NCBI GenBank assembly: GCA_963834755.1
Contig: CAWICQ010000001.1
Location: 59,566-123,565 of the forward strand
DNA length: 64,000 nt
Direction of reading: 5' to 3'
Source of the DNA: an uncultured Gammaproteobacteria bacterium
GTDB lineage: Bacteria > Pseudomonadota > Gammaproteobacteria > Xanthomonadales > Rhodanobacteraceae
The notes under the pieces are model-generated. The model worked only from the letters and a program-made list of their open reading frames with translations, was not told the origin of the DNA and made no database searches. Positions within the stretch are counted from its first letter, which is position 1, and every line of letters starts with the position of its first letter. Both the position numbers and the translations under genes were made by a program. Shown here piece after piece: positions 13,731 through 38,853 of this stretch.

Positions 13731-14468
13731 CTATGGCGCCGACACGGCGCAATCGAACGGCAGCAACGCATGCAACCACGGGGCGTGGCCAGCAGCGAGC
13801 CAGGGCCCCGCCAACGTCAGCATGGCGCTTGCGAGCAACAGGCTTCCAGCGGCGTTGCGCATGAATCGCGGGGCCTTCGCGAATGCAAGCCGCTGCGCGC
13901 CGAACGCGCCGAGCATCAATGCGGGCACCGTGCCGAGTCCGAATGCCGCCATCGTCGCTGCGCCACGCAGGGGATCGAGCGAAAGCGTCGCGACGATCAG
14001 CACGGTATAGACGAAGCCGCACGGCATCCAGCCCCATAGCATTCCGAACGCAGTCGCGCGCGGAAAGGTCGACACCGGCAGAAGCCGTCGTCCGAGCGGT
14101 GCGATTCCGGCCCAGATCCGATGCGCAGCTCCGGCGCCAGGATTTCGCAGCACACCGAATGCAACCAGCGCGCCGACTAGGAAAGCGCCAGCGGTTGCGG
14201 TGCGCAATGCGGTGCGCACGTGATCGTTGTCAAGCCAGCCGATCGCCGCACCAGCGAGGCCACTGAAAAGGAGGCCGGCCAGCGTGTAGGAAAGAACACG
14301 GCCGAACTGATAACCCGCGAGGAGATCGACGCGCGGCCGGCCATCGCTGCGGCGCGTGGTTACCGTTCCGAGCGCGGCCGTGATCCCGCCGCACATGACC
14401 AGGCAATGTCCGCTGGCGGCGAGCCCGAGCAGCAACGCGGCGCCGATCGTCAGAGCGCCGCCGCTCAT
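13731..14468 (-). CDS. TauE/SafE/DsbD_2-type membrane protein of cco clusters
   Basis: GHCLVMCGG, YQFGRVLSY, WGWMPCGFVY, FGLGTVP; last gene of the ccoGHIS operon. Confidence 0.85.
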   Translation of the reverse strand: MSGGALTIGAALLLGLAASGHCLVMCGGITAALGTVTTRRSDGRPRVDLLAGYQFGRVLSYTLAGLLFSGLAGAAIGWLDNDHVRTALRTATAGAFLVGALVAFGVLRNPGAGAAHRIWAGIAPLGRRLLPVSTFPRATAFGMLWGWMPCGFVYTVLIVATLSLDPLRGAATMAAFGLGTVPALMLGAFGAQRLAFAKAPRFMRNAAGSLLLASAMLTLAGPWLAAGHAPWLHALLPFDCAVSAP

Positions 14469-14620
14469 GGCGGCGACTCCTTCTCATCGTCGGTCAGCGG
14501 CATCAGCGCGGGCGTTTCCAGATCGTCGAACTGCGAATGATCGATCGCCCAGAACAGCGCGGCGACTCCGGCGACGAGCAGCACGATGCTGAGCGGAATC
14601 AGTACAAGAATGATGTTCAC
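14465..14620 (-). CDS. ccoS: cbb3 oxidase maturation protein CcoS/FixS
   Basis: VNIILVLIPLS...FWAIDHSQFDDLE; GTG overlaps the ccoI stop. Confidence 0.9.
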   Translation of the reverse strand: MNIILVLIPLSIVLLVAGVAALFWAIDHSQFDDLETPALMPLTDDEKESPP

Positions 14621-17031
14621 GCGATCGCCTCCGCGAGCCGCGGCGTATCGTCGCGCGTCGCCTGGCGCGCACGCGGCACGTCGATGCGCAACGAATTGAG
14701 GACGACGATAAGCGAGCTCGCCGACATCGCAATCGCGGCGAGCCACGGCGGGACAAAGCCCAGCGCCGCGAGCGGCACGGCGCCGATGTTGTAGACCAGC
14801 GCCCAGTCGAGATTCTGCGCGAGCACCCGGCGCATGCGTACCGCGACCGCGCGCGCACGAGGCAATTCGTCGAAGCGATCGGCCGCGAGCACGAGACCGC
14901 TGGCCGCCTGGGCGAGCGCCGCTCCGCTCGACAACGCGATCGAAACATCGGCTGCGGCCAGCACCGGCGCATCGTTCACGCCGTCGCCGATCATCGCGAC
15001 GACGTGTCCCTCGGCGCGTAGGCGTTCGATATGCGCAAGCTTGTCGGCCGGCGTCGCGTTCGCCTTCCATGCGCCCGCCGCGAGTTCTGCGGCGGCTTCG
15101 GCAACGCGCGCACTCGTGTCGCCGCTCAGGATCTCGGTCGACGCACCGCTTTCGCGCAAGGCTGCCAAAGCGGGCGCAGCTCCGTCGCGTGGCCGCTCGC
15201 GCATCGTGAATTCGGCGACGACGCCATGGTCGTCCGCAAGGACCAGACCATCGCGCGCATTGTCGCCGGGTATCGCGAAATTCGAGCGCCCGAAACGGTA
15301 CGTGACTCCATCGACGATGCCGGAAACTCCGGCTCCGGCCGCGTGGCGTCGATCCATGACGACGGGCAGCGGCATGTCGCCGGCCGCCTCGCGCACGGCG
15401 GCGCCGAGTGGATGCGCGCTGCCCTGCTCGAGCGCAGCGGCCACGGCGAGCGCGGCAAACGGGTCGCCGCGGCGGACCAGCAGGTCGCCGCTCGTGATCT
15501 CCGGATGGGTCAGCGTGCCGGTTTTGTCGAAAACGAAACGGTCGGCGCGCGCGAGCACATCGAGCGCATCGGCGTCGACGACGAGCACACCGCGGCGCGC
15601 GAGCACGGCGACCGCGCGCGTCAGCGCGGCGGGCACGGCGAGCGCGAACGCGCACGGACAGCTCACGACCAGCACGGATACCGCAGCGGCGAATGCGCGC
15701 GAGGGATCGACGAAGCTCCAGCCGACGCCCGCGATCAGCGCGAAGGCAAGCACGCGCAACACGAAATGCCGCGCGCGACGATCCGCTTCGTGCACCAGTT
15801 TGGGTTTGCCGCTCGCGGCGCGCGTCACCATGCGCACGATGTCGGCCAGCACCGTGTCGGCACCGACGCGTTCGACACGTACTTCGACCGGGCCATCGAG
15901 GACGAGACTGCCTGCGATCAGCGCATCGCCGCTGCAACGTCGCAATGGCGTCGATTCGCCGGTCAAGAGCGATTCGTCGACGCTGCAGGCACCGTCGATC
16001 AGCAAACCGTCGGCCGGCACCGCCGCGCCCGCGGGGATGCGCACGCGATCGCCGGGTACCAGCTCGTGCACGCCGACTTGCTCGCTGCCGCTCGCAGTCA
16101 GGCGTTCGGCGGTGGCCGGCTGCAGGCGCGCGAGCGCATCGACGAGATCGGCGGTGCGGTGGCGCGCGCGCATCTCGACATAGCGCGCGCCGAGCAGGAA
16201 GAAGACGAACATGCTCACCGAATCGAAATAGATGTCGCGGCCGTGCGCGAGCGTCTCGACCAGGCTCGCGGTATAGATCAGCGCGATCGCGAGCGCGATC
16301 GGCGTGTCCATCGAAAGATGACGCGCCTTCCACGAACGCCACGCGCCGGCGAAGAACGGCCTCGCCGAATAGAAGACGACCGGCGCGGCGACGAGGAAGC
16401 CGAGCCAGCGGAAGAAATCGCGCGTCGTCGCTTCGATGCCGTCGAAGGTGCCGGCGTACAGCGCGACGGCGTACATCATTGCCTGCATCGTGCCGAGGCC
16501 GGCGACGACGAGACGCTTCAGCGCATCGCGATCCTCGCGCAAGCGCGAAGAATCCAGCGCGGCGGCTTCGAGCGGCTGCGGCGTGTAGCCAAGCTGCGCG
16601 AGTCGGCCCATCAAATCGCAGAGACGCGCCGCGTTTGGATCGAACACCAGGCGCACACGCCGCGCCGGTGCGTTGACCGCCACCTCGCGCACCCCGGCGC
16701 TGCGGCCGAGCGTGCGTTCGATCAGCCAGGCGCACGCCGAGCAACGCAGACCCTCGACGAGAAAAACAATTTCCGCGCGATCGCTCGCGTGCGATCGCAG
16801 ATGCAGACGTTGTAACGCGGGACGATCCCATGCCGAGAAATCCGCGCTCGCCGCGGGGCGCGTCGCGGGCCCGGTGCGCAGGCGATAGTAGTCGCCCAGG
16901 CCGAGCCCGGCGATCCATTCGACGGCGGCGCGGCAGCCCTGACAACAGACCGGCTCACGTTCGCCTCCGACCGATGCAAGGATCGCGACGTCGTCCGGCA
17001 CAGGCTCGCCGCAGTGGAAGCACCGCTTCAC
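14617..17031 (-). CDS. ccoI: Cu-translocating P1B-ATPase CcoI/FixI
   Basis: CFHC...CCQGC N-terminus, CSAC HMA domain, TGES, CPC, DKTGT, GDGVND. Confidence 0.92.
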   Translation of the reverse strand: MKRCFHCGEPVPDDVAILASVGGEREPVCCQGCRAAVEWIAGLGLGDYYRLRTGPATRPAASADFSAWDRPALQRLHLRSHASDRAEIVFLVEGLRCSACAWLIERTLGRSAGVREVAVNAPARRVRLVFDPNAARLCDLMGRLAQLGYTPQPLEAAALDSSRLREDRDALKRLVVAGLGTMQAMMYAVALYAGTFDGIEATTRDFFRWLGFLVAAPVVFYSARPFFAGAWRSWKARHLSMDTPIALAIALIYTASLVETLAHGRDIYFDSVSMFVFFLLGARYVEMRARHRTADLVDALARLQPATAERLTASGSEQVGVHELVPGDRVRIPAGAAVPADGLLIDGACSVDESLLTGESTPLRRCSGDALIAGSLVLDGPVEVRVERVGADTVLADIVRMVTRAASGKPKLVHEADRRARHFVLRVLAFALIAGVGWSFVDPSRAFAAAVSVLVVSCPCAFALAVPAALTRAVAVLARRGVLVVDADALDVLARADRFVFDKTGTLTHPEITSGDLLVRRGDPFAALAVAAALEQGSAHPLGAAVREAAGDMPLPVVMDRRHAAGAGVSGIVDGVTYRFGRSNFAIPGDNARDGLVLADDHGVVAEFTMRERPRDGAAPALAALRESGASTEILSGDTSARVAEAAAELAAGAWKANATPADKLAHIERLRAEGHVVAMIGDGVNDAPVLAAADVSIALSSGAALAQAASGLVLAADRFDELPRARAVAVRMRRVLAQNLDWALVYNIGAVPLAALGFVPPWLAAIAMSASSLIVVLNSLRIDVPRARQATRDDTPRLAEAIA

Positions 17032-22051: not shown

Positions 22052-22065
22052 TTGATCCTGATCAA
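22052..22065. promoter_or_regulatory. FNR/FixK box upstream of ccoN
   Basis: Perfect TTGAT-CCTG-ATCAA, centred about 59 nt upstream of the ccoN ATG. Confidence 0.9.
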
Positions 22066-23760: not shown

Positions 23761-23774
23761 TTGATCTGGATCAA
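23761..23774. promoter_or_regulatory. FNR/FixK box upstream of the BON gene
   Basis: Perfect TTGAT-CTGG-ATCAA, centred about 64 nt before the ATG at 23832. Confidence 0.9.
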
Positions 23775-24509: not shown

Positions 24510-24974
24510 ATGTACAAACGCCTTCTGGTCTGCACCGATGGTTCGCCTCTCGCGCAGAGTGCTGCGCGGGAAGGCGTGAAGCTCGCTGCATCGCTGCGCG
24601 CGCGCGTCGTCGCGTTGCTCGTGACGCCGCCGTTCGAGCCGCCGAAGGGGTACGAATCATCGCCACTTGCTGCACAGATCCGACAGCACGAGCGCGAAAG
24701 CAAGGCGATGGCCGCGCGCTGTCTTGACGCCATCGCGCGCGAGGCCAAAGAGCTCGGCATAGTGTGCAAGACGCGGCACGTCGGCAAGTACCCGCCCGCG
24801 GCGACGATCGTCGAGACCGCGGCGGAGGAGAAGTGCGATCTCATCGTGATGGGCTCGCACGGCCACGGCGCGCTCGGACAGCTCTTCGTCGGATCGGTGA
24901 CGACACGCGTGGCAGCGACATGCTCGGTGCCCTTGCTGATCGTGCGCCCGCGCGCTGGCAAGGGTAGGAAATAG
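24510..24974 (+). CDS. Universal stress protein
   Basis: LVCTDGS...DLIVMGSHGHG...VGSVT. Confidence 0.92.
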   Translation: MYKRLLVCTDGSPLAQSAAREGVKLAASLRARVVALLVTPPFEPPKGYESSPLAAQIRQHERESKAMAARCLDAIAREAKELGIVCKTRHVGKYPPAATIVETAAEEKCDLIVMGSHGHGALGQLFVGSVTTRVAATCSVPLLIVRPRAGKGRK

Positions 24975-25000
24975 GCTAGGAAAGAAATAGGCGACGAACG

Positions 25001-25915
25001 TCACCCACGCGGAGCGGCGTCACCGATGCGCTCGAGCTGACGCAGGATCGGTGGCGCCAGAACCGGCACGATGTCAATCGCATTGGTCGGATGTGGGATC
25101 GTATTCGTCGTGACAACGCGTCCAACGCCCGCGTCGAGAATTTCCTGATACGCATCTGCCGCGAAGATGCCGTGCACGGCGACGCAAGCCGGCGCCGCTG
25201 GCGTCGCGACACGCAGACGTCTGACGACTTGCATGAGCGTTCGCCCTGACGAGATGATGTCATCGACGATCACGGGCGTGCGTCCTTCGATCTCGGCGGT
25301 CGGCAGCGAACAGACTTCGACCTCGCGGTCACCGAGCCGCTGCTTGCTGAGCGCCAAGATGGGCGCCCCGATCGCGACGCCGAGTGGCTGCACCCACTGC
25401 GCGCTCTCGTCGTCGGGACCGATCAGGATCGGATTCGCGACATTGGCCCGAATCCATTCGCCGATCGGCGGTATCGCCGTGACATGTTCGACTGGAATGC
25501 CGAACAGCGCGCCGAGATCGTGGCGCCGGTGCAGGTGAGGATCGACCGTGACCAGCCAGTCGAAAATCGACGACAGGAATGAAGCGAAATGCGCCGACGC
25601 AAGAGCTTCGCCGGGATGGAAGCGCGCGTCCTGGCGCATATACGCAAGATACGGTGCAGCAAGTCCGACCGAACGCGCGCCGAGCTCGCGCGCCGTGCGC
25701 GCGGCGAACAGCAGCGGTAATGCGAGCGGATCGGGATCTCGAAGCGTGCCGACAATGACGACGTCGCGCCCGCGGCATTCGCCTTCGAGAGCGAGCAGCG
25801 ATTCACCGTCGGGAAAATGTCTCCATCGCAGCGTTCCCATCTGCGCGCCCAACCGCTCGCAGAGGTGTGCGGCGAGCTGATCGACGCGTGGGAATGCGAA
25901 CAGGATCGGCGTCAT
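25001..25915 (-). CDS. Ribose-phosphate pyrophosphokinase paralogue
   Basis: FPDGE, PYLAYMRQD, DPHLH, GPD, VDDIISSGRT. Confidence 0.9.
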   Translation of the reverse strand: MTPILFAFPRVDQLAAHLCERLGAQMGTLRWRHFPDGESLLALEGECRGRDVVIVGTLRDPDPLALPLLFAARTARELGARSVGLAAPYLAYMRQDARFHPGEALASAHFASFLSSIFDWLVTVDPHLHRRHDLGALFGIPVEHVTAIPPIGEWIRANVANPILIGPDDESAQWVQPLGVAIGAPILALSKQRLGDREVEVCSLPTAEIEGRTPVIVDDIISSGRTLMQVVRRLRVATPAAPACVAVHGIFAADAYQEILDAGVGRVVTTNTIPHPTNAIDIVPVLAPPILRQLERIGDAAPRG

Positions 25916-27429
25916 GATCCTTCGCCGATGCGCAGCAGCGCCGCATGTTGATCGAGATACGCTCGTGCGTAATCGAGTTCGCCGGCCGATTCGGCGTGCA
26001 GCGTGAGCAACGGTTCGCCGACGTTTACCCTGGCGCCGAGCGGCGTATTCAGCACCAGCCCAGCCGCGGCATCGCGCGGCGCGCCGGCGAGTTTGGCCAC
26101 CTTGGCGAGCTTGCGATTGTCGATCTCCTCGACGATGCCATCGCGCGTCGCGAGGAATTCGAATCGGTACGCTGCGACGGGCGGCTCATGCATGCCACCT
26201 TGCGCAAGGCAGATCGCTTCGAACTTGCGCAAGGCAGCACCCGAGCGCAGCAGATGTTCGGCTCTGCTCCTGTTGATGCCGGGCGTCGTCGAGTCGAAGT
26301 CGAGCACTTTCGCTGCGAGCTCGAGCGCGCGCTCCCGCAGATCAGCCGGCGCATCGTCTGCGTTGCGCAGCACGCGCAGGACATCCCAGGCTTCGAGCGC
26401 CGGACCGATGCCGCGCCCGATCGGCTGACGTCCGTCGCAGACATGCACGGCAATGTGAAGGCCGATTGCGCCACCGACATCGACGAGCCGCTTGCCGAGC
26501 ACCGCAGCGGCGTCGAGGCTGCGGACCTTGGCCGTCGGTCCGACGGGAACGTCGATCACGACGTGCGTGGAGCCAGCCGCTTTCTTCTTCGACAGCACGC
26601 TTGCAGTGAGCTGCGCATCGCTGTCGAAGTCGAGCGGGCGCTCCACGCGAATCAGTACGTCGTCGGCCGGGCTCAGGCTGACCGCGCCGCCCCAGACGAT
26701 GCAGCCGCCTTCGCGCTCAACGACACGGCGCATTGCCGGAAGATCGAGATCGACCTTGGTCAGCGTCGCCATGGTGTCGGCTGTTCCTGCCGGCGAGGTG
26801 ATCGCGCGCGACGATGTCTTCGGGATCAGCGAACCGGCCGCGGCGACGATCGCAACGACGATCGGTGTCGTCCGGTTGCCCGGCAGTCCGCCGACGCTGT
26901 GCTTGTCCAGCACCGGCGAGCGCGACCATTCGATCCGCTCGCCGACGCCGACCATCGCTTCGGTCAATGCGATATTTTCCTTGAGGTCAAACGCCGGGCC
27001 CGCGCAAGCCGCGATGAATGCGGCCAGTTCGATGTCCGAGAGCCGCCCGTCGATTGCATCGCGAAGGAGGCGTTCGTATTGGCCGCGATCGAGCGCGTGT
27101 CCGAACACTTTTGAGCGCAGATCGCTCGCCGATTCGGCCGGCTGGGGATATTCGAAAGTCACCCGCTCCCCATCGTGCGCACCAAGGCGACGCCACGCCG
27201 CCTCCGAGAGTCCGGCCGTGAACGCATCCAGCCATGTGCCGGTGACGACGTTCAGTGTCGCCACGATGCTGCGCTCACCAAGACAGATGCGAATGCGCGA
27301 CAGCGACTCGAAACCGATCGACTTGCACACCGAGCATTCGCGATTCAGGTAGACGACGGATTCCTGATACGTGTCGACGCCGAGTCGTCGAACCTGGAGC
27401 TGCGTTGTGACGGGGATGGCAGCACCCAT
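25912..27429 (-). CDS. AMP/thymidine phosphorylase family, archaeal AMP-phosphorylase-like
   Basis: Extra N-terminal domain of about 85 aa plus DKHSVGGLPGNRTT and PKTSSRAITSPAGTAD; about 505 aa. Confidence 0.88.
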   Translation of the reverse strand: MGAAIPVTTQLQVRRLGVDTYQESVVYLNRECSVCKSIGFESLSRIRICLGERSIVATLNVVTGTWLDAFTAGLSEAAWRRLGAHDGERVTFEYPQPAESASDLRSKVFGHALDRGQYERLLRDAIDGRLSDIELAAFIAACAGPAFDLKENIALTEAMVGVGERIEWSRSPVLDKHSVGGLPGNRTTPIVVAIVAAAGSLIPKTSSRAITSPAGTADTMATLTKVDLDLPAMRRVVEREGGCIVWGGAVSLSPADDVLIRVERPLDFDSDAQLTASVLSKKKAAGSTHVVIDVPVGPTAKVRSLDAAAVLGKRLVDVGGAIGLHIAVHVCDGRQPIGRGIGPALEAWDVLRVLRNADDAPADLRERALELAAKVLDFDSTTPGINRSRAEHLLRSGAALRKFEAICLAQGGMHEPPVAAYRFEFLATRDGIVEEIDNRKLAKVAKLAGAPRDAAAGLVLNTPLGARVNVGEPLLTLHAESAGELDYARAYLDQHAALLRIGEGS

Positions 27430-27434
27430 CGCCC

Positions 27435-28253
27435 TCAGCCCTTGAGATAGAGCGGCACGCCGGCGTGTTGCAGGAGATAGCGCGGGATGGGATCGAGGTG
27501 CACGTCGCCGAATCGACTCTTGCCCGGAGCACCCGCGACGACAAGATCCACGCGATGACGAGACGCTGCTTCGAGCAGCGCGTCGGCGGCCTCGTCCGCG
27601 CCTGCATCCAGCTCCTCGAGCTCGATCGCGATGCCATGTTTTGCAAGGTGATGCAGCGGGTCGAATGGCGGGCGTCCGTCGGGTCGTTCCACCGGCCAGT
27701 TCCCGCGCAGCAGAACGACGCAGGTCGCCCTGCCGAGCAGTGGAAGCGCTTCGTGCAGCGCGCGGATCGAAGCGGACGAACCATCGTAGACGAGCGCGAT
27801 GCGCTCGAGCCGGCCGATTGCGTAGGTCGCTTCCGGCACCACGATGCAGGCGAATCCGGACAGCAGCGTTTCGCTGATCAAGTCGATCGCTCGCTCGGCT
27901 TCGGCGTTCGGCCGCTCGAACACGACGACGTCGCTCCAGTTGGCGGCGACGCCTACAACATTCGCCGCATCGCCGAGTGCGACCTGCCACTGCGCTCTCT
28001 GCACGCCGAATTGCCGCGCCCACGTGGCGAAGCGCGGTCCGGCCAGCATGGCGGCCTGCACTTCGTCCTGCGCGTAGGCGATCAACTCCGCACCGATCGA
28101 TGCCGGCATGCCGCTCGGTGTCCGTAACGGCAACCGCGGCGCGACGTGAATGCCGGTCAACGACGCGTCGACGGTCGCCGCAAGCTCCGCCGCATAGCGG
28201 GCGCCGGGCGACCACGTATGGATGTCGGCGCAATAGGCGAGGATATCCTGCAC
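27435..28253 (-). CDS. Tandem-domain universal stress protein (divergent)
   Basis: MQDILAY, LVYDGSSASIRALHEALP, DLVVAGAPG. Confidence 0.85.
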   Translation of the reverse strand: MQDILAYCADIHTWSPGARYAAELAATVDASLTGIHVAPRLPLRTPSGMPASIGAELIAYAQDEVQAAMLAGPRFATWARQFGVQRAQWQVALGDAANVVGVAANWSDVVVFERPNAEAERAIDLISETLLSGFACIVVPEATYAIGRLERIALVYDGSSASIRALHEALPLLGRATCVVLLRGNWPVERPDGRPPFDPLHHLAKHGIAIELEELDAGADEAADALLEAASRHRVDLVVAGAPGKSRFGDVHLDPIPRYLLQHAGVPLYLKG

Positions 28254-28263
28254 GCGCGCCGCT

Positions 28264-28995
28264 TCACTGCAGTTTCAGAGTATGGATGACCTGTCTTGGA
28301 TCATCCGGATCGGTCTTGCGACGGAAACCGAAGAACTTGGCCAGATCGCGCATGCCCGTGTTGCCGACCTCGTCGATCGACATCATCGATCGCACACCGC
28401 GCGATCGCGCGACTTCGATCAGATGCCGCATCAGCAATGCGCCGAGTCCGCGGTTGCGCCATTCGTCACTCACGGTGACAGCGCATTCTGAGGTCTTGCC
28501 GTCCTTGCTCGTGCTGTAGCGTGCGACGCCGATTTCGACCTTCTCGCCGTCGCGGTGGATCAGCGCGACGAACGCCATGTCGCGCCGATAGTCGATGTCG
28601 GTCAGGTTGTGAATCAGCTCATCGCTCGGCTCGTTCATCTGGCCGAGAAAGCGCAGACGCCGCGATTCCGGCGAAAGGCGTTTGATGAAAGCCCGCTCAA
28701 GTGCTGCGTCTTCCTTGTGGATCGGGCGGATCAGAATGCGCGTGCCGTCTGCGAGCGTCTCGGTCCATCGCGGATCGTCACGTGACGGAGCGGTCGTGAC
28801 GAGCGCCTTGGCGGGTTTTCCTACCGGACGCGGCGCTTTCGGCTTGCGCGCCGACGCGTTGGATTTTGCCTTCGCGGCGGTCTTGCGTCGCATGGGTTTC
28901 GCGACGGTCTTGCTGCGGCGCGACCGCGCACTGTCGGTCGTCTTGGCCTTCACGGAAGCGCGGCGGCGCGGGGTACGGGTCGAACGGGTGGCCAT
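28264..28995 (-). CDS. GNAT acetyltransferase with a Lys/Arg/Ala-rich N-terminal tail
   Basis: AAGGAG RBS. Core LADG..ILIRPI..ED...LSPESRRLRF...IGVARY...WRNRGLG resembles the Pat/YfiQ GNAT domain. Confidence 0.85.
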   Translation of the reverse strand: MATRSTRTPRRRASVKAKTTDSARSRRSKTVAKPMRRKTAAKAKSNASARKPKAPRPVGKPAKALVTTAPSRDDPRWTETLADGTRILIRPIHKEDAALERAFIKRLSPESRRLRFLGQMNEPSDELIHNLTDIDYRRDMAFVALIHRDGEKVEIGVARYSTSKDGKTSECAVTVSDEWRNRGLGALLMRHLIEVARSRGVRSMMSIDEVGNTGMRDLAKFFGFRRKTDPDDPRQVIHTLKLQ

Positions 28996-29049
28996 GGCGG
29001 CATCTCCTTGAAGCGTGCCGTCACTATGGCCCGGTCGCGCAGCGGGCAA

Positions 29050-29063
29050 TTGATCCACGTCAT
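29050..29063. promoter_or_regulatory. FNR/FixK-like box (2 mismatches) upstream of the GNAT
   Basis: TTGAT-CCAC-GTCAT, centred about 61 nt from the ATG at 28995. Confidence 0.55.
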
Positions 29064-29088: not shown

Positions 29089-30261
29089 TCAGCGTCTGAG
29101 CCGGTCGGTCGCACGCGCGACGACGATCTCCTCGTCGGTGGGAATCGCGAATACGTCGACGCGTGAATCGGGCGCGCTGATGCGCGGGCGGTGGCGCGCA
29201 TTTGCGTCGGCGTCCAGCGCGACGCCGAGCCATGCCGAACAAGCGCAGACGCGACGTCGCATCTGCGCCGAGTGCTCGCCGATGCCGCCGCTGAAGACCA
29301 GCACGTCGAGCCCTTCGAGCGCTGCGGCCATCGCGGCGATCTCGCAGCCCGCGCGATATGCGAAGAGGTCCATGGCTTCCTCGGCATGCGGGTCGCCACT
29401 CGCCTCGAGAACGCGCAGATCGTCGCTGATTCCTGATACGCCGAGCAGGCCGGAACGGTTATAGAGCAAGTCCTCGACGGCGGCGGGCGTCATTGGTCTT
29501 TGCTGCAGCAGATACAGCAATAGACCAGGATCGATCGCGCCGCTGCGCCGACCCATCATGAGTCCATCGAGCGCGGTGAAGCCCATCGTCGTCGCCATGC
29601 TGCGCCGATCGCGCATCGCGCACAGGCTGGCGCCGTTCCCGAGATGGGCGAGGACAACGCGTCCGTTGGCGCGAGCGCCGGCGTAGCGCGGCAGAACGCC
29701 ACTGAGATATTCGTACGAGAGCCCATGAAAACCGTAACGGATGATGCCTTCGGCAGCGAAAGCGCGCGGCAGCGCGAACCATTGTGCGCGCGCCGGTTGG
29801 GTGCGATGGAATGCGGTATCGAAGCACGCGATCTGCGTCAGGCCGGGCCATGTCTGGGCAACCATGCGGATCGCAGCCAGGTTGTGAGGCTGGTGCTGCG
29901 GGGCGAGCGGCACGAGCTTTTCGAGCGCGGCGAGCACGTGCTCGTCTACGACGACAGGCTCCGCGAAATCCATTCCACCATGCACGACGCGATGGCCCGC
30001 CGCCCGAACCACGACGTCGGCCACCGATTGGCGGATGCGATCGAGCAGCCAGCGTCCGGCTGTGGAGTGATCGCGGATCTCGGCCGGCAATTCCGTCTCG
30101 CCGAAATCCGCAGCCCGTGGTCCCTCGATGTGCGCGGCGATGTCGTCGTCGCCAATGTTCTCGATATGGACTCGGCACTGCAGATCGAGCGTGCCGGCGG
30201 CATAGAGCGCGACCTTGATGCTCGACGAGCCGACATTGAGAACCAGGATCGCTTCGATCAT
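29089..30261 (-). CDS. ackA: Acetate/propionate kinase
   Basis: NVGSSSIK, GHRVVHGG, APQHQP, FDTAFH, GFHGLSY, HLGNGAS, GGIGE, PTDEE. Confidence 0.93.
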   Translation of the reverse strand: MIEAILVLNVGSSSIKVALYAAGTLDLQCRVHIENIGDDDIAAHIEGPRAADFGETELPAEIRDHSTAGRWLLDRIRQSVADVVVRAAGHRVVHGGMDFAEPVVVDEHVLAALEKLVPLAPQHQPHNLAAIRMVAQTWPGLTQIACFDTAFHRTQPARAQWFALPRAFAAEGIIRYGFHGLSYEYLSGVLPRYAGARANGRVVLAHLGNGASLCAMRDRRSMATTMGFTALDGLMMGRRSGAIDPGLLLYLLQQRPMTPAAVEDLLYNRSGLLGVSGISDDLRVLEASGDPHAEEAMDLFAYRAGCEIAAMAAALEGLDVLVFSGGIGEHSAQMRRRVCACSAWLGVALDADANARHRPRISAPDSRVDVFAIPTDEEIVVARATDRLRR

Positions 30262-31649
30262 TTCGACGCGCTTCGGAAATGCTCGAGCAGCACGGCAAGC
30301 GCGCAGGACGCCAGTCTCGCCAGCACGTCGTCCGAGCGGCTGGTGAGCACGATCGGAACGCGTGCGCCGAGCACGATCCCCGCCGAGTCGGCGCCGGAAA
30401 GGTAGATGAGCTGCTTGGCCAGCATATTGCCCGACTCGAGGTCGGGCACAACGAGTATGTCGGCGTCGCCGGCGACGGGCGAAACAATCTGTTTCGTCTC
30501 AGCGGCTGCGCGCGAGATCGCGTTGTCGAACGCGAGCGGCCCGTCGACGAGACCACCGACGATCTGGCCGCGATCGACCATCTTGCACAGCGCCGCGGCC
30601 TCGACCGTCGAGTGAATCTTCGGGTTGATCGTCTCGACCGCCGACAAGATCGCCACCTTCGGCAATCGAATCGCGATCGCGTGCGCGAGATCGATCGCGT
30701 TCTGGACGATGTCGCGCTTGTCCATCAGGTCGGGATAGATATTGATCGCGGCGTCGGTGAGCAGCAACGGTTTGGGATATGTCGGGACGTCGAGCGCGAA
30801 AACGTGACTCATGCGCCGTTCCGTGCGCAAACCCGAAGCGGCGTCGACCACGGCCGCCATCAGCTCGTCGGTGTGCAGCGCGCCCTTCATCAGTGCGCGG
30901 ACCGCACCGCTGCGCGCGAGATCGACGGCGCGCGCCGCGGCCGCGTGGCTGTGCGGCGTGTCGAGGATCTCGACCCCATCGAGCGAAAGTCCTGCCGCAG
31001 CGGCCGTCTTGCGGATCTTCGCTTCGGGTCCGACCAGCACCGGCACGATCAACAGCTTGCTCCTCGCTTCGAGAGCGCCGGTCAGCGACAGCTCGTCGCA
31101 CGGATGCACAACCGCCATGCGCAACGGTTCCAGCGATCGCGTCGCGTCGATCAGCTGGCGATAGCGCAGGCCGCGCTCGTGCAGGTGCACCTCCGCAAGC
31201 GCGGTGCGCGGCCGTCGCACTTTCGCGGTCGGTGCGATGACGCTGGCGACGCCCTCGACGACGACATCACCTGCCTGATTGCGACACACGCAATCCAGCG
31301 TGACACGGTTGCCCGGCATGTGCTTCTCGCGCACGCTGACGCGCACCGTGACCGTATCGCCGACGCCGACCGGTTTGCGGAAATGCAGGGTCTGGTCGAC
31401 ATAGATCGTGCCCGGTCCCGGCAGTTCCGTACCCAACACGGCCGATATCAGCGCGCCGCCCCACATTCCGTGCGCGATGACTTTGTGGAACACATCGGAG
31501 CGGGCGAAGTTCTCGTCGACATGTTCGGGATTGACGTCGCCGGACAATACCGCGAACAACTCGATGTCGTCCTTGCGCAAGGTGCGCGTGATCTCGGCCT
31601 GATCGCCAACCTTGAGCTCGTCGTAGGTCTTGTTCTCGATGTACTGCAT
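30258..31649 (-). CDS. Bifunctional MaoC-type enoyl-CoA hydratase / phosphate acyltransferase
   Basis: N-terminal SGDVNPEH..AHGMW hot-dog domain; C-terminal MKGALHT, DGPLAFDNA, SRSD. Confidence 0.92.
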   Translation of the reverse strand: MQYIENKTYDELKVGDQAEITRTLRKDDIELFAVLSGDVNPEHVDENFARSDVFHKVIAHGMWGGALISAVLGTELPGPGTIYVDQTLHFRKPVGVGDTVTVRVSVREKHMPGNRVTLDCVCRNQAGDVVVEGVASVIAPTAKVRRPRTALAEVHLHERGLRYRQLIDATRSLEPLRMAVVHPCDELSLTGALEARSKLLIVPVLVGPEAKIRKTAAAAGLSLDGVEILDTPHSHAAAARAVDLARSGAVRALMKGALHTDELMAAVVDAASGLRTERRMSHVFALDVPTYPKPLLLTDAAINIYPDLMDKRDIVQNAIDLAHAIAIRLPKVAILSAVETINPKIHSTVEAAALCKMVDRGQIVGGLVDGPLAFDNAISRAAAETKQIVSPVAGDADILVVPDLESGNMLAKQLIYLSGADSAGIVLGARVPIVLTSRSDDVLARLASCALAVLLEHFRSASK

Positions 31650-31723: not shown

Positions 31724-31737
31724 TTGACCAGGATCAA
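31724..31737. promoter_or_regulatory. FNR/FixK box in the divergent MaoC-pta / MBL promoter
   Basis: TTGAC-CAGG-ATCAA, placed between ATG 31649 (-) and ATG 31803 (+). Confidence 0.8.
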
Positions 31738-31802
31738 GCGTCGCGGCGGCCGACCATCTAGAGTGCGCAGGCCGGGCGCGTCGCTGGCGGGGGAGGATGC
31801 GG

Positions 31803-33203
31803 ATGATCGCAATCACATGCCACGGCGCCGCCCGGCAAGTCACAGGGTCCTGTCACCTCCTCGAATGCGCCTCGCAGCGAATGCTGATCGACTGCGGCCT
31901 CTTTCAGGGCAGCGATGCGGTCGAGAACGGCAATGCGGCGGAATTCGGCTTCGATCCCGCGTCGATCGACTTCGTTCTACTGACCCACGCGCACCTCGAT
32001 CATTGCGGTCGCATACCGTTGTTGGTCAAACGAGGATTTCGTGGCGAAATCATCGCGACCGCTCCGACGCGCGAACTGGCGCGGCTCGTGATGAGCGACG
32101 CCGCGTCGCTGCAGCAAGAGGACGCGCGCATGCGCTCGCGGCGACTGCATCGCGGCGGAAATGCCGATTCGGTGCCGCTCTACACGATCGACGATGCGTT
32201 CCATGCGATGGATTTCTTCGGCCGCAAGGCCGAGTACGGACGCGATATCGACCTCGCGCCGGACCTGCGCGTTCGCTTCGTCGATGCCGGACACATGCTC
32301 GGATCCGCTTGCGTGCTCGTCGATGCGGGAACCGGCGCTTCGCGCCGGCGCATCCTGTTCTCGGGCGACATCGGCAATCCGGGCCGGCCGCTGCTGCGCA
32401 TTGCCGAGCCGCCGCCGGCGGCGGATGTCGTGGTGATGGAAGCGACGTACGGCGATCGCAACCATCGATCGATGTCGGCCAGTGTCGATGAGCTCGTCGC
32501 CGCGATCAAGGACAGGCTCGACAGCGGCGGCAATGTGGTCATCCCGACGTTCGCGCTCGAACGCGCGCAGGAAGTCATCTTTCATCTCGCCAATGCCGTG
32601 CGCGCAGGCACGCTGCCGCGCAACTTGCGCGTCTTCCTCGATTCGCCGATGGCGATCTCGGCGACTTCGATCTTTGCGCGCTATCCCGATTGTCTGGGCG
32701 AAGAATCACGCGCGCGCATTGCCGCCGGCAGCGACCCGTTCGGGCTGCCGACGCTGCGCTTCACGCGCGATGTCGCCGAGTCGATGGCGATCAACAATAT
32801 CGACGGCGGAGCGGTGATCCTTGCGGGCTCCGGCATGTGCACCGGCGGCCGTGTGCTCCATCACCTCAAGCACAATCTCTGGCGCGAGAATGCCGGCGTC
32901 GTATTCGTCGGCTACGCCGCCGAAGGGACACCCGCGCGCCGCATCATCGATGGCGCCGACTACGTGCGCATTCTCGGCGAGGAAATCCGCGTTCGCGCGA
33001 AGATATGGACGATCAATGGCTTCTCGGCGCACGCGGGTCAGGACGATCTGCTGCGCTGGATCGCGCACACCGGCGCACCGCGCAAGGTCCTGCTGGTCCA
33101 TGGCGAGCCGGCGCGAGGCATGCAACCGCTTGCCGAACGCATTCGGCAGAGCGGACTCTCCGTCGAGATGCCCGCCCAGGGCGAACGCCTGACGTTCGAC
33201 TGA
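31803..33203 (+). CDS. MBL-fold beta-CASP ribonuclease (RNA-metabolising)
   Basis: DCG, THAHLDHCG, AGHMLGS, FSGDIG, FSAHAG, LVHGE. Confidence 0.92.
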   Translation: MIAITCHGAARQVTGSCHLLECASQRMLIDCGLFQGSDAVENGNAAEFGFDPASIDFVLLTHAHLDHCGRIPLLVKRGFRGEIIATAPTRELARLVMSDAASLQQEDARMRSRRLHRGGNADSVPLYTIDDAFHAMDFFGRKAEYGRDIDLAPDLRVRFVDAGHMLGSACVLVDAGTGASRRRILFSGDIGNPGRPLLRIAEPPPAADVVVMEATYGDRNHRSMSASVDELVAAIKDRLDSGGNVVIPTFALERAQEVIFHLANAVRAGTLPRNLRVFLDSPMAISATSIFARYPDCLGEESRARIAAGSDPFGLPTLRFTRDVAESMAINNIDGGAVILAGSGMCTGGRVLHHLKHNLWRENAGVVFVGYAAEGTPARRIIDGADYVRILGEEIRVRAKIWTINGFSAHAGQDDLLRWIAHTGAPRKVLLVHGEPARGMQPLAERIRQSGLSVEMPAQGERLTFD

Positions 33204-35220: not shown

Positions 35221-35236
35221 GTTACGAACCGTTACA
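35221..35236 (+). promoter_or_regulatory. Tandem direct repeat GTTACG-N4-GTTACA (K-box-like OmpR-family site)
   Basis: GTTAC at 35221 and 35231 with a weaker GTTGC at 35241 (10-bp period), 79 nt upstream of the FixK-like ATG. Confidence 0.7.
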
Positions 35237-35314
35237 AACGGTTGCTGCGGCGACGTCGAATTGTGAGCGTCGGCCGATAACGTCTCTTCCGCGAACCCGC
35301 GTTAGGAGACCGAC

Positions 35315-36037
35315 ATGAACATCGCATGCGCCGCCAGCAGAATCGAACCGGCCGTTGTCGCGGCGTCGGCACGCTTCAACAGCGCCGCCATCGATATCGA
35401 TCTGCTGCGTCAGCACGTCGAGGTGTTTCGCCGGAAGATATCGGCCGGTGAATACATCTATCGCGCGGGACAGCCGATGCAGGCCGTGTTTCTGGTCCAT
35501 GTCGGATCGCTCAAAACCTGCGAGCTCGCGACGGACGGCCGTGAACAGATCACCGGATTCCGCATGCGCGGCGATCTGGTCGGCGTGGAGTCGATCGGCC
35601 TTGCGACCTATGCGTGCGATGCGATTGCGCTCGAAGACTGCGAAGTCTGGGAATTGCCGTACCCGCCGGTCCTGAAGGCGTGCCTGGAGATTCCGGAATT
35701 GCACAACCGCTTCACGGCTGCCCTGGCGGAGGAGATCCGGCGCGATCGAAGCTGGATGCTTGCGCTCGGCACGTTGACCGCCGAGCAGCGCGTCGCCGCG
35801 TTCCTGATCGATGTCGCGGCCCGTTACGCGGAGCTCGGTTTCAGCGACCGTCATTTCCTGTTGCGTATGAGCCGCGCCGACATGGCGAATTTCCTCGCGC
35901 TGAAACACGAGACCGTCAGCCGGGCGCTGTCGCGTCTGCAGGACCTGTGCTTTATTGCGGTCCAGCGCCGCGAGGTCAAGGTGATGGACATGCCGGAGCT
36001 GCGCCGGCTGGCCGCGGGTTCTGCGACGATCCACTGA
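35315..36037 (+). CDS. Crp/Fnr-family regulator, FixK-type (no N-terminal Fe-S Cys cluster)
   Basis: DGREQITGF, SRADMANFL, recognition helix ETVSR; only one Cys in the N-terminal region. Confidence 0.9.
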   Translation: MNIACAASRIEPAVVAASARFNSAAIDIDLLRQHVEVFRRKISAGEYIYRAGQPMQAVFLVHVGSLKTCELATDGREQITGFRMRGDLVGVESIGLATYACDAIALEDCEVWELPYPPVLKACLEIPELHNRFTAALAEEIRRDRSWMLALGTLTAEQRVAAFLIDVAARYAELGFSDRHFLLRMSRADMANFLALKHETVSRALSRLQDLCFIAVQRREVKVMDMPELRRLAAGSATIH

Positions 36038-36049
36038 GACGCGGCGGCT

Positions 36050-38107
36050 TCAGGCGGCTCGGTCGGCGTCCAGCGTTTTGCGCAAGGCGGCCGCTAATTG
36101 CTCGCGGCGATAGGGCTTGCGTAGCACATCGGATTCGATCGATGCCGACGGCTCGCTTGCTTCGGCAGCGTGTTCATAACCGGACGTGAGCAATACCGGC
36201 AGATGAGGTCGCAATACCCTCGCTTCGCGGACGAGGTCGAAGCCGGTCATGCCGCTGCCGAGCACGATGTCGGAAAACAGCAGTTCGATATCGGTGTGCT
36301 GCCTGAGAAGCGCGAGCGCGTTCTCGGCATCGCTTGCTTCATAGGTCGTGTAGCCGAGTGAACGCAGGAAGGCGAGGGCGATTCCGCGCACTTCGGCTTC
36401 GTCTTCGACGACGAGAATGGTTTCTTTTCCTTCGCGCGGCGGTATTGCGTCGCGGACGGGATGTGCGAGGTCCGCGTTGGAGCCCGCGGGCAGATAAAGA
36501 TCGACGCGCGTCCCTTGGCCGACGTGGCTTTCAATGGCGACCTGACCGCCCGACTGCCGGGCAAATCCGTACACCATGCTGAGGCCAAGTCCGGCGCCTT
36601 TGCCGGCGTCCTTGGTCGTGAAGAAGGGTTCCAGCGCGCGCGCACACACTTCCGGCGCCATGCCGGTGCCGGTGTCGACGACGCTGAACACGACGTAGGC
36701 GCCGGGCGGCAGATCGATACGATCCGTCCCGGATTCCAGGACGTGCTCGCGGACGCCGATGTTAAGAGCACCGCCATTCGGCATCGCGTCGCGCGCGTTG
36801 AGAGCGAGGTTGATGAGCGCCGCCTCGAGTTCGCCCGGATCGGCAAACACCGGAGTCTTGTCTGCCTCGCCCAGTTCGACCGAAACGGCGATGTGCTCGC
36901 CCAGGGTGCGCCGAAGCATGCCTTGCAGATCGGAAAGAACCTGGCCAGGCAGGATGGGCCGCGGGACCAGGTGTCGTCTGCGCGCGAATGCCAGCAGCTT
37001 GCGTGTGAGTACAGCACCGCGGTCGACGGCACGCAACGCGCTGTCGATCGTTTCGCCCAGCGCGGGGCGGTCCGCAAGCTCCGCTTCGAGAATCTGAAGA
37101 TTGCCCGAGATCACGGTCAGCAGATTGTTGAAATCGTGCGCGATGCCGCCGGTGAGTTGTCCCACTGCGTCCAATCGTTGGGAATGCGCAAGCTGTTCCT
37201 CGCTGCGACTGCGTTGAGCGGCCGCGGCAAGAATATTTCCGACCGATTGCAGGAAATGCAGGGCATCGCGGTCGAAGTGATCGCGTTTGCCGGACAACGC
37301 GAGCAACACGCCCATCGGCTGGTAGCGATCGAGCAGCAAGACGGCGGCCGCATCGCGAAAACCGGCGTCGCCGAGCGCGGCGACGAGGGGCGCGAACTCG
37401 CTGCCGATCAGCTGTTTCAGCGTGATGCCCGCGGGCGCGTCGCGCTCGACGCGGGCGAATAGCGCGCTCTGCGGAATCGTCCGCGGCAGTGTTTCGCGAA
37501 GACTGCGCGGAAGGCCGGTTTCCGCGTGCACGCGCAGATCGTCGCTGCGCGGGCCCGCAAGCAGAACCACGGCAGCACGGATCGCCAACGCCGACGCCAC
37601 GAGCGCGGGCATCTTCTCAACGGCCGCTTCGTAGTTCGAAGATTCGAGCGCAAGGCGACCGATCTGCGCGGCGAACGTGTCGTGTCGCGCGCGCGTCAAA
37701 GCCTGTCGCACGCGATGCGTTTCGGAGATGTCGCGAATCGAAGCGGCGAATAATATGCTTTTCGACGACTGGATCGGACTGAGCCCGATCTCCACCGGAA
37801 AGGGTTGCCCGTTGCGGCGAACGCCGGTCAACTCATAGCCCGCGCCCATCGGGCGGACGCGTGGGTTTGCCATGAATCCGTTGCGGTGGCCGACATGAAC
37901 CGCGCGCACGCTTTCCGGCAGCAGGACTTCCACGGGCGATCCCGCGAGTTCTCCGGCCTCGTATCCAAACAGGCGTTCCGCCTGCGGATTCGCCAGGACG
38001 ATGCAACCATCGCGATTGACCACGATCATCGCATCGGGCGCCGTCTCGAACAGCGCTTCGAACAGCGCCGAGTCGATCGGTTCGTCGGATCCGGCCGGAG
38101 GCGTCAT
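36050..38107 (-). CDS. Hybrid sensor histidine kinase PAS-GAF-HisKA-HATPase-REC (FixL-like PAS)
   Basis: PAS ETAPDAMIV...FGY...LLPESVRAVH...GVRRNGQPFP; H-box GIAHDFNNLL; NARDAM; DTGTGM; FFTTK; REC EDE...FSD...KP. Confidence 0.92.
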   Translation of the reverse strand: MTPPAGSDEPIDSALFEALFETAPDAMIVVNRDGCIVLANPQAERLFGYEAGELAGSPVEVLLPESVRAVHVGHRNGFMANPRVRPMGAGYELTGVRRNGQPFPVEIGLSPIQSSKSILFAASIRDISETHRVRQALTRARHDTFAAQIGRLALESSNYEAAVEKMPALVASALAIRAAVVLLAGPRSDDLRVHAETGLPRSLRETLPRTIPQSALFARVERDAPAGITLKQLIGSEFAPLVAALGDAGFRDAAAVLLLDRYQPMGVLLALSGKRDHFDRDALHFLQSVGNILAAAAQRSRSEEQLAHSQRLDAVGQLTGGIAHDFNNLLTVISGNLQILEAELADRPALGETIDSALRAVDRGAVLTRKLLAFARRRHLVPRPILPGQVLSDLQGMLRRTLGEHIAVSVELGEADKTPVFADPGELEAALINLALNARDAMPNGGALNIGVREHVLESGTDRIDLPPGAYVVFSVVDTGTGMAPEVCARALEPFFTTKDAGKGAGLGLSMVYGFARQSGGQVAIESHVGQGTRVDLYLPAGSNADLAHPVRDAIPPREGKETILVVEDEAEVRGIALAFLRSLGYTTYEASDAENALALLRQHTDIELLFSDIVLGSGMTGFDLVREARVLRPHLPVLLTSGYEHAAEASEPSASIESDVLRKPYRREQLAAALRKTLDADRAA

Positions 38108-38853
38108 TCCCGTCGAACCTGCGCGGCAAACAGGTACCCGGCTCCGCGCACGGACTTGATGATTTCCGGCCGCGCGGGATCAGTCTCGATCTTGCGCCGC
38201 AGCCGGCTGATCTGCACGTCGATCGCCCGGTCGAATGGACCGGCGTCGCGCCCGTGCAGGTGCGTCATCAAATCGTCACGCGACAACACGCGATTCGGAT
38301 GCTCCACGAGAATCTTCAGAAGCGCGAATTCGCCACTCGTCAGATCCACCGGCGCGCCATGCCGATCGATCAAGGAATACGCTCTTGCGTCGAGGCGGAA
38401 ACCCGAGAAAACCAGTGTCGAACCATCCTGCGCCGAACTTGCATCGCGTTCGCTCGTGCGACGCAGTACCGTGCGAACGCGCGCAAGCAGCTCGCGCAGA
38501 TCGAAGGGTTTGGTCACGTAGTCATCGGCACCGAGCTCGAGTCCGACGACGCGATCCACGGATTCCCCGCGACCCGTCACGATGATGACGGAACCGCGCC
38601 ATTGCTGGCGCAGATAACGCGTCAGATCGAAACCGTCCTCGCCCGGCAAACCCAGATCGAGCAGGATCAGATCGACAGAAATCTCCCTGGCGAGTGCCTC
38701 TCGCATCGCAGCGCCGTCGGTTGCCGTGCTGACGCGAAAGCCCTGCGCCGTGAAATAGCGCACGACCAGCGCGGCGATATCGGGATCATCGTCGACGATC
38801 AGCAGATGATGGTTGCAGACTTGGTTGGCGGAGGTGGAGGTCGAATCGTGCAT
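38104..38853 (-). CDS. OmpR/PhoB-family response regulator (FxkR-like)
   Basis: VDDD, LLDLGLP, GADDYVTKPF, FDRAIDVQISRLRRKIE; stop overlaps the kinase start. Confidence 0.93.
   Translation of the reverse strand: MHDSTSTSANQVCNHHLLIVDDDPDIAALVVRYFTAQGFRVSTATDGAAMREALAREISVDLILLDLGLPGEDGFDLTRYLRQQWRGSVIIVTGRGESVDRVVGLELGADDYVTKPFDLRELLARVRTVLRRTSERDASSAQDGSTLVFSGFRLDARAYSLIDRHGAPVDLTSGEFALLKILVEHPNRVLSRDDLMTHLHGRDAGPFDRAIDVQISRLRRKIETDPARPEIIKSVRGAGYLFAAQVRRE

Follow-up and report, generated by a model that had tools for sequence, protein, structure and literature searches.

In a 64,000-nucleotide stretch of an uncultured Rhodanobacteraceae genome (hereafter the window; contig CAWICQ010000001.1, positions 59,566 to 123,565), two overlapping minus-strand genes encode a phosphorylase resembling archaeal nucleoside monophosphate (NMP) phosphorylases and a paralogue of phosphoribosyl pyrophosphate (PRPP) synthase (PRS). 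This pair is probably at the heart of a module for nucleotide recycling that is conserved in bacteria and is wired here into a low-oxygen regulon of the FNR/FixK type. What was observed is the layout of the operon, how well the pair is conserved, which families the proteins belong to, and the regulatory setting. Good genomic evidence further indicates that the bacterial phosphorylase family would produce ribose-1,5-bisphosphate (R15P) destined for PRPP. The role of the PRS paralogue is proposed more tentatively. In the reading we favour, although we place it somewhat short of an even chance, a beta-CASP ribonuclease would deliver 5'-NMPs, the phosphorylase would split them into base and R15P, and the paralogue would take R15P directly to PRPP.

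The phosphorylase gene (25912..27429, minus strand) starts with an ATG at 27429 behind a GAGGG Shine-Dalgarno sequence and encodes 505 amino acids (aa). Hidden Markov model (HMM) scores and motifs place the protein in the PRK04350 'thymidine phosphorylase family protein' group, with 628 bits on NF003338/PRK04350 (cut-off 434) and 546 bits on TIGR02645 (cut-off 434.6). Since the HMM alignments begin at model position 2, the extra N-terminal domain is present. The protein also includes the motifs DKHSVGGLPGNRTT and IPKTSSRAITSPAGTAD, so that an earlier sequence-only reading, which had described a phosphorylase of about 505 aa with an N-terminal domain and these motifs, was accurate on all three points. 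In contrast, scores on the models for DeoA and pyrimidine nucleoside phosphorylase (PyNP) lie far under the respective cut-offs (TIGR02643, 151 versus 571; TIGR02644, 180 versus 409; NF004490, 183 versus 269).

Structural relatives lead to the same assignment. The closest solved relative is the NMP (AMP) phosphorylase of Thermococcus kodakarensis (4GA4-4GA6, 310 bits), with 40.8% identity to 4GA5 over 409 aa, whereas structures of PyNP and thymidine phosphorylase (TP) reach at most 140 bits. Both the window protein and 4GA5 carry GG(L/V)PGN(R/K)T and PKTSSRAITS(P/A)AGTAD, which are missing from the PyNP 1BRW. Residue by residue, GGLPGNRT and PKTSSRAITSPAGTAD agree with GGVPGNKT and PKTSSRAITSAAGTAD of the Thermococcus enzyme, not with GGV-GDTT and AKMSGRGLGHTGGTID of PyNP, and the matched motifs surround the phosphate/ribose site. 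The general NP-II residues (KHS, S-R, T-D, and S-K-K) are kept as well. Judged from these comparisons, the enzyme is of the archaeal NMP/AMP-phosphorylase type and not a DeoA, as the sequence-only reading had proposed. The Thermococcus enzyme phosphorolyses AMP, CMP, and UMP to R15P (PMC9700705).

The second gene (25001..25915, minus strand) encodes a 304-aa PRS paralogue of the PRK07199 subfamily. Its ATG overlaps the TGA of the phosphorylase gene (ggatcATGAcg), which confirms the ATGA overlap reported before and amounts to translational coupling; Shine-Dalgarno-like purine runs precede both genes. The protein passes NF005537/PRK07199 with 362.5 bits (cut-off 322). It stays far below the cut-offs of class I enzymes (NF002320, 117 versus 297; NF003428, 70 versus 536) and of the archaeal class III equivalog (NF002095, 179.8 versus 296). 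The top match in the PDB is the class III PRS of Methanocaldococcus jannaschii (1U9Y, 131 bits). By fold the paralogue is not a PhnN, which has a P-loop guanylate-kinase-like architecture (TIGR02322) as opposed to the PRS fold.

Conserved positions in the paralogue include F33/D35/E37, R94-Q95-D96, H127, P167-D168, K191/R193, D218-D219, and T226. In human PRPS2, the residues F35/N37/E39, H130, and T225/T228 supply the adenine-stacking phenylalanine, the histidine that binds the alpha-phosphate and magnesium, and the 5-phosphate loop (PMC10227994). This conservation suggests that the paralogue is an active enzyme handling an adenine nucleotide and a ribose-5-phosphate moiety. Conservation within the family was judged from an alignment of 84 members at the level of at least 90%. 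Several invariants are specific to the family: DPHLHR, with a three-residue insertion after the catalytic histidine; GPDxESxQW, which replaces the canonical PDxGG; GD following KxR (KxRxGD); and a C-terminal H..N motif. The PDxGG position is presumably the pyrophosphate-binding loop. By alignment, DPHLHR, GPDxESxQW, and KxRxGD lie in loops that handle the transferred phosphoryl groups, and these loops are remodelled. The alignment stops short of the C-terminal segment that holds the allosteric ADP site of class I enzymes, so this segment is lacking.

Far from being confined to this genome, the pair is widespread in bacteria of several phyla. An even sample of 301 genomes from the phylum of the window contained the phosphorylase above cut-off in 35 genomes, the PRS paralogue in 33, and both in 32 (Fisher p = 1.5e-38), and the paralogue lies directly downstream of the phosphorylase in 29 of these 32. 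A second set comprised 80 named loci from Alpha-, Beta-, and Gammaproteobacteria, Bacteroidota, Planctomycetota, Myxococcota, and Acidobacteriota. There, the paralogue follows immediately in 68 loci, at a median distance of 15 bp, and is found nearby in two more; among the ten without it, contig ends cut four or five. The co-occurrence that the sequence-only reading had asked about is thus borne out in both sets. A protein search at E <= 1e-20 returned at least 8,000 clusters at 90% identity, mostly named 'thymidine phosphorylase (family protein)'. The phosphorylase tree mixes phyla, which indicates lateral transfer. A beta-CASP gene adjoins the pair in 11/20 and 46/80 related loci, making it a conserved third partner. 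Long open frames had suggested a fusion of PRS and beta-CASP, which was rejected, as the two genes are separate at L024 with an ATGA overlap.

Other neighbours are less frequent. A divergent XFP-type phosphoketolase (PF03894/PF09364) stands next to the pair in 4/20 and 14/80 loci, and AckA is found near it in 4/20 and 3/80. The XFP-type homologue is about 790 aa long, with 130 bits on PF03894 and a weak match to PF09364 (L008:5931-8600, L009:10843-13242, L011, L025, and 14 of L035-L114). A P-type cation ATPase occurs within 7 kb of the pair in 27/80 loci (L035-L114). Several matches to the PRS paralogue in small autotroph genomes contain a single internal stop; these may be alignment-edge effects or decay.

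The link from R15P to PRPP, which had been offered as an inference, receives comparative support from a group of gene fusions. In E. coli, PhnN (ribose 1,5-bisphosphokinase) is the known kinase converting R15P to PRPP (PMC9700705). In G220, one of the three genomes (of 36) that possess the phosphorylase but not the PRS paralogue, PhnN and the phosphorylase are joined in a single 739-aa protein (L027:7877-10096). The PhnN part scores 183.5 bits on TIGR02322 (cut-off 156) and the phosphorylase part 588 bits on NF003338/PRK04350. More than 100 clusters of such fusions, about 680 aa long, come from Bosea, Rhodoplanes, Azorhizobium, Methylobacterium, Ottowia, Lautropia, and others. In a follow-up sample of 201 genomes from the order of G220, the phosphorylase was present in 16. 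Six of these are PhnN fusions, none of which is accompanied by the paralogue (0/6), and nine of the ten unfused phosphorylases have it, the exception carrying an in-frame stop. Pooling both samples, the paralogue is found in 0/6 fused versus 39/41 unfused genomes. The fusions are about 680-740 aa long at L027, L115, L116, L117, L118, and L119. The one unfused phosphorylase lacking a PRS partner, at G064:C15:66874-68355 (L028), carries an in-frame TGA.

These patterns suggest that the phosphorylase pairs with either PhnN or the PRS paralogue, one in place of the other. At four of six fusion loci, the gene lies directly downstream of nadC, which encodes quinolinate phosphoribosyltransferase, a consumer of PRPP, and is accompanied by a TRAP-TAXI transporter. 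Fusion, nadC, and TAXI-type TRAP transporter together suggest a self-contained module from quinolinate to nicotinate mononucleotide (NaMN) with its own PRPP supply. A route from NMP through R15P to PRPP is plausible because the phosphorylase is fused to PhnN, mostly beside nadC, in genomes without the PRS paralogue. In the tree, the fused proteins form one clade (100/100 support) nested among PRS-coupled members. The idea that the complementarity arose in many independent events was hence rejected, the fused clade being monophyletic.

The rest of the genome was searched for related functions in an assembly of 4.05 Mb in 14 contigs, 95% complete. A canonical housekeeping prs is located at G000 C3:238882 (618 bits on NF003428), beside the genes for L25 and ispE, as anticipated by the sequence-only reading. 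Likewise, a class I prs is present in 39/39 genomes bearing the paralogue. A genome with the paralogue as its only PRS would force ribose-5-phosphate (R5P) chemistry; this candidate was looked for among these 39 genomes and not found. Neither R15P isomerase (best TIGR00511 score of 180 bits versus a cut-off of 314) nor form III RuBisCO (TIGR03326, 400 versus 497) was found in the genome. PhnN was not found there either (best match of 49 bits versus 156 on TIGR02322).

The earlier description of the pair as lacking R15P isomerase and RuBisCO therefore stands for the isomerase and for form III, but not for RuBisCO in general: the genome possesses a form I operon (cbbR / cbbL-cbbS-cbbX), and its single IF-2B-family gene is MtnA (433 bits on TIGR00512), both unlinked to the pair. 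None of the 36 genomes that carry one or both genes of the pair encodes an R15P isomerase (0/36), while control archaea matched. RuBisCO of form I or II is present in 21/36, never adjacent to the pair, and absent from 15/36. A link to RuBisCO and R15P isomerase was rejected on these counts. RuBisCO carriers look over-represented (21/36), which may be lineage bias, as one family accounts for 15 genomes. An MtnA-like isomerase occurs in 20/21 RuBisCO-positive versus 3/15 RuBisCO-negative genomes with the pair, and promiscuous isomerisation of R15P by MtnA is possible.

In the window, six genes on the minus strand follow one another almost without gaps, and the pair stands at the end of this cluster. 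The cluster opens with a bifunctional MaoC-hydratase/phosphate acetyl(butyryl)transferase (30258..31649; NF006045, 760 bits). Its start is probably the ATG at 31649, because the NF006045 alignment begins at residue 25 of the long open reading frame (ORF). There follow an acetate/propionate kinase (29089..30261; TIGR00016, 333 bits versus a cut-off of 293), a Pat-like GNAT acetyltransferase (28264..29058), and a tandem universal stress protein (USP; 27435..28253, Pfam Usp) that ends 5 bp upstream of the phosphorylase. The GNAT gene, between ackA and USP in the operon, encodes a Lys/Ala/Arg-rich N-terminal extension of about 90-100 aa that is also rich in Thr and Pro. A terminator-like hairpin with a T-rich tail (24987..25008, minus strand) straddles the PRS stop codon (25001..25003) and likely marks the operon end by consensus match. 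The next gene is a convergent USP gene (24510..24974, plus strand).

The only strong promoter-type signal of the cluster is a putative FNR/FixK-type box, TTGACCAGGATCAA, matched by consensus at 31724..31737. It lies in the promoter region from which the pta-like gene and a gene for an MBL-fold beta-CASP ribonuclease-type protein (31797..33203, plus strand; Lactamase_B, Beta-Casp, and RMMBL domains) diverge, and would serve both directions. Two further boxes precede ccoN of the cbb3 oxidase (22052..22065) and a BON-domain gene (23761..23774). In total, three perfect TTGA-N6-TCAA boxes were observed in the window versus 0.38 expected. Genes around the cluster encode a Zn-alcohol dehydrogenase, an OmpR-type regulator, and a PAS hybrid kinase whose PAS domain is FixL-like; ccoNOP-ccoG and four USP genes are also present. 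This neighbourhood is a low-oxygen island. The pair itself is a typical member of the module; what sets this copy apart is that it closes a pta-ackA-GNAT-USP operon and that the nuclease gene is divergent under a shared FixK-type box.

Published data from Bradyrhizobium diazoefficiens provide a parallel. There, the orthologous genes bll3117-bll3116-bll3115 form one operon with a FixK2 box that is induced under microoxia at the transcript and protein levels (PMC6515984, PMC9104804). The three genes are annotated as thymidine phosphorylase family, ribose-phosphate pyrophosphokinase, and MBL fold, respectively (PMC6515984, PMC9104804). Together with the boxes, the cbb3 oxidase, and the stress proteins, this operon substantiates the hypoxic setting that the sequence-only reading had assumed.

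Other features of the window are recorded here in their own right. The PAS hybrid histidine kinase, whose FixL-like PAS domain reaches 116 bits on the FixL model, and the OmpR-family regulator occupy 35222-38853 on the minus strand, and an adjacent 270-aa ORF (35222-36034) had no NCBIfam match. The three could possibly form an oxygen-sensing cascade for the FixK-type boxes. Between 40001 and 44000, the G+C content is 0.54-0.57 versus 0.62-0.69 elsewhere in the window, and this segment may be foreign DNA. A long ORF in the cco cluster (14465-16945) has a C-terminal CcoS segment as its sole NCBIfam match, with a P-type-ATPase-like tblastn match inside.

The proposed recycling sequence can be written out as follows. 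The beta-CASP nuclease would degrade RNA to 5'-NMPs, which the phosphorylase, acting as its Thermococcus homologue does, would convert with phosphate (Pi) into free base and R15P. The PRS paralogue would then form PRPP, most likely by R15P + ATP -> PRPP + ADP, as a functional stand-in for PhnN; it may work like PhnN without being one. PRPP would thereby be regenerated for the re-synthesis of adenine nucleotides, NAD, and other nucleotides without pentose-phosphate flux, at the cost of one ATP equivalent and not two. R15P isomerase and RuBisCO would stand outside this route. A broader claim is that the PRK07199 paralogue represents a new activity on the PRS fold, acting on R15P either as a kinase to PRPP or as an R15P:AMP/ADP phosphotransferase and completing, with the bacterial NMP phosphorylase and the beta-CASP RNase, a widespread route from RNA through NMP and R15P to PRPP (or to R5P and ATP). 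We regard that claim as possible but doubtful.

Several observations weigh against the favoured assignment. The PRS paralogue passes the general ribP_PPkin model (TIGR01251, 180 bits versus a cut-off of 113), and FPDGE, RQD, the catalytic histidine (DPH), PD, KxR, and DDIxSxGxT are kept in at least 90% of the 84 aligned members; plain R5P + ATP chemistry is therefore equally compatible with the sequence, which alone cannot tell R5P from R15P as the acceptor. On the AMP phosphorylase equivalog TIGR03327, the phosphorylase does not reach the cut-off (445.9 bits versus 535). The PhnN fusion arose once in the sample, so that the complementarity amounts to about one event and a Fisher p-value overstates it, and since the fused clade changed its context (nadC, TRAP), its physiology may differ. 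A survey of perfect FNR boxes within 400 bp upstream of the cluster, with a background of 0.016 per 430-bp window, recovered them in only 4/79 other loci. Family-wide FNR control was consequently rejected, and low-oxygen control is claimed only for the window and Bradyrhizobium. Lastly, the presence of Pta-AckA here and of the phosphoketolase-like gene at 14/80 loci could point to catabolism instead of salvage.

The retained motifs and the TIGR01251 score correspond to an alternative that is nearly as likely as the R15P reading, although by itself it remains rather doubtful. The paralogue would be an ordinary, non-allosteric, class III-like PRPP synthase (R5P + ATP -> PRPP + AMP), co-expressed with an NMP phosphorylase for base salvage at low oxygen, and R15P would be turned into R5P by another enzyme or represent a dead end or a regulator. 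Its nearest solved relatives (1U9Y, 4TWB, and 1DKR) are all genuine PRPP synthases, and the C-terminal allosteric segment is missing as in class III enzymes (PMC9232217). However, a class I prs always accompanies the paralogue (39/39). An enzyme acting on the phosphorylase product would better account for the strict translational link with the phosphorylase gene and for the fact that the R15P-specific PhnN takes the place of the paralogue in the fused clade. The invariant, family-specific changes in the PP loop and the flexible loop count in the same direction. The annotation taken at face value, with a plain thymidine or pyrimidine nucleoside phosphorylase beside a surplus PRPP synthase and no chemistry on nucleotides, is very improbable. 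Public records do name the protein this way, and the phosphate- and base-binding residues common to NP-II enzymes are conserved; yet the scores far under the DeoA and PyNP cut-offs, the closeness to the NMP phosphorylase structure, and the N-terminal domain with AMP-phosphorylase motifs contradict it, and a PhnN fusion would be senseless for a product without a 5-phosphate.

A catabolic use of the same intermediate is also conceivable, though we think it unlikely. In the canonical reverse reaction of PRS, AMP attacks the phosphate attached to C1. Judging from this mechanism, R15P would present the geometry of the reverse substrate minus its distal phosphate, so that the paralogue could catalyse R15P + AMP (or ADP) -> R5P + ADP (or ATP), a transfer that would keep the energy of the glycosidic bond. 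The replacement of PDxGG by PDxES, in what is presumably the pyrophosphate-binding loop, also speaks for this reading. R5P would pass via pentose phosphates to phosphoketolase and acetate kinase, providing substrate-level ATP when respiration fails. The pair shares one operon with pta-like and ackA genes here, and the phosphoketolase and AckA neighbours described above (phosphoketolase at 4/20 and 14/80 loci) fit such a role. Nevertheless, the reaction is estimated from textbook values to be uphill by about 10 kJ/mol under standard conditions, and the displacement by PhnN points to PRPP as the product. Moreover, the phosphoketolase-like gene is missing from this operon and from most loci, and the genome contains only a distant homologue (G000 C12:749.8-751.6 kb, beside a P-type ATPase).

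The sequence-only reading had called such a shunt undescribed. This does not apply to the genes, which are annotated in thousands of genomes and listed in transcriptome and proteome tables of microoxia. As for the biochemistry, none of the literature searched dealt with the bacterial pair, with proteins of the PRK07199 family, or with the PhnN fusion. Nucleotide-level phosphorolysis has so far been described in archaea only (PMC9700705) and predicted in candidate-phyla bacteria (PMC5113843). If the R15P-to-PRPP reading is true, bacteria of several phyla, including 35/301 sampled genomes of the phylum of the window, own such a route, joined to PRPP formation instead of RuBisCO. With a paralogue acting on R15P, the route would bypass the pentose phosphate pathway and save the energy of the glycosidic bond under oxygen limitation. 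It would explain a recurrent, FixK/FNR-induced rhizobial operon, give a function to thousands of 'thymidine phosphorylase family' and 'ribose-phosphate pyrophosphokinase' annotations, and show how non-growing, oxygen-starved cells could cheaply turn ribosomal RNA into PRPP, adenylates, or NAD. The PhnN fusion beside nadC would offer a ready-made positive control for the step from R15P to PRPP.

The proposed module can be set against four known systems. Like the NMP (AMP) phosphorylase of T. kodakarensis (PDB 4GA4-4GA6; PMC9700705), the window enzyme has an N-terminal domain within the same fold and domain arrangement; the two are 41% identical and carry the same signature motifs, and the presumed reaction here would also be NMP + Pi -> base + R15P. 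Unlike the enzymes of the archaeal NMP shunt of the pentose bisphosphate pathway, the bacterial phosphorylases form a separate clade and fall below the AMP_phos equivalog cut-off. Neither of the archaeal partners, R15P isomerase and form III RuBisCO, occurs here, and the PRS paralogue (or PhnN, in one clade) stands in their place. The paralogue in turn resembles the class III PRPP synthase of M. jannaschii (1U9Y), being short and devoid of the allosteric C-terminal segment (Kadziola 2005, as cited in PMC9232217). The two also have the RQDxxF..GEA flexible loop and the KxR catalytic loop in common. The paralogue differs from the archaeal enzyme in its own invariants and in always occurring alongside a class I prs.

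As in the E. coli PhnN route, PRPP would arise from R15P independently of Prs, and PhnN is itself joined to this phosphorylase family in one clade. In contrast to that route, the window contains no PhnN; the phosphorylase is partnered by a protein of the PRS fold, and the chemistry known for that fold is the transfer of a diphosphoryl group to R5P. The closest parallel in gene content is bll3117-bll3116-bll3115 of B. diazoefficiens, where the same three gene families stand beneath a FixK-type box, predicted in the present case. In B. diazoefficiens, the beta-CASP gene belongs to the operon as its third member, whereas here it diverges from the common box, and the pair trails pta-ackA-GNAT-USP, unlike in the rhizobial operon.

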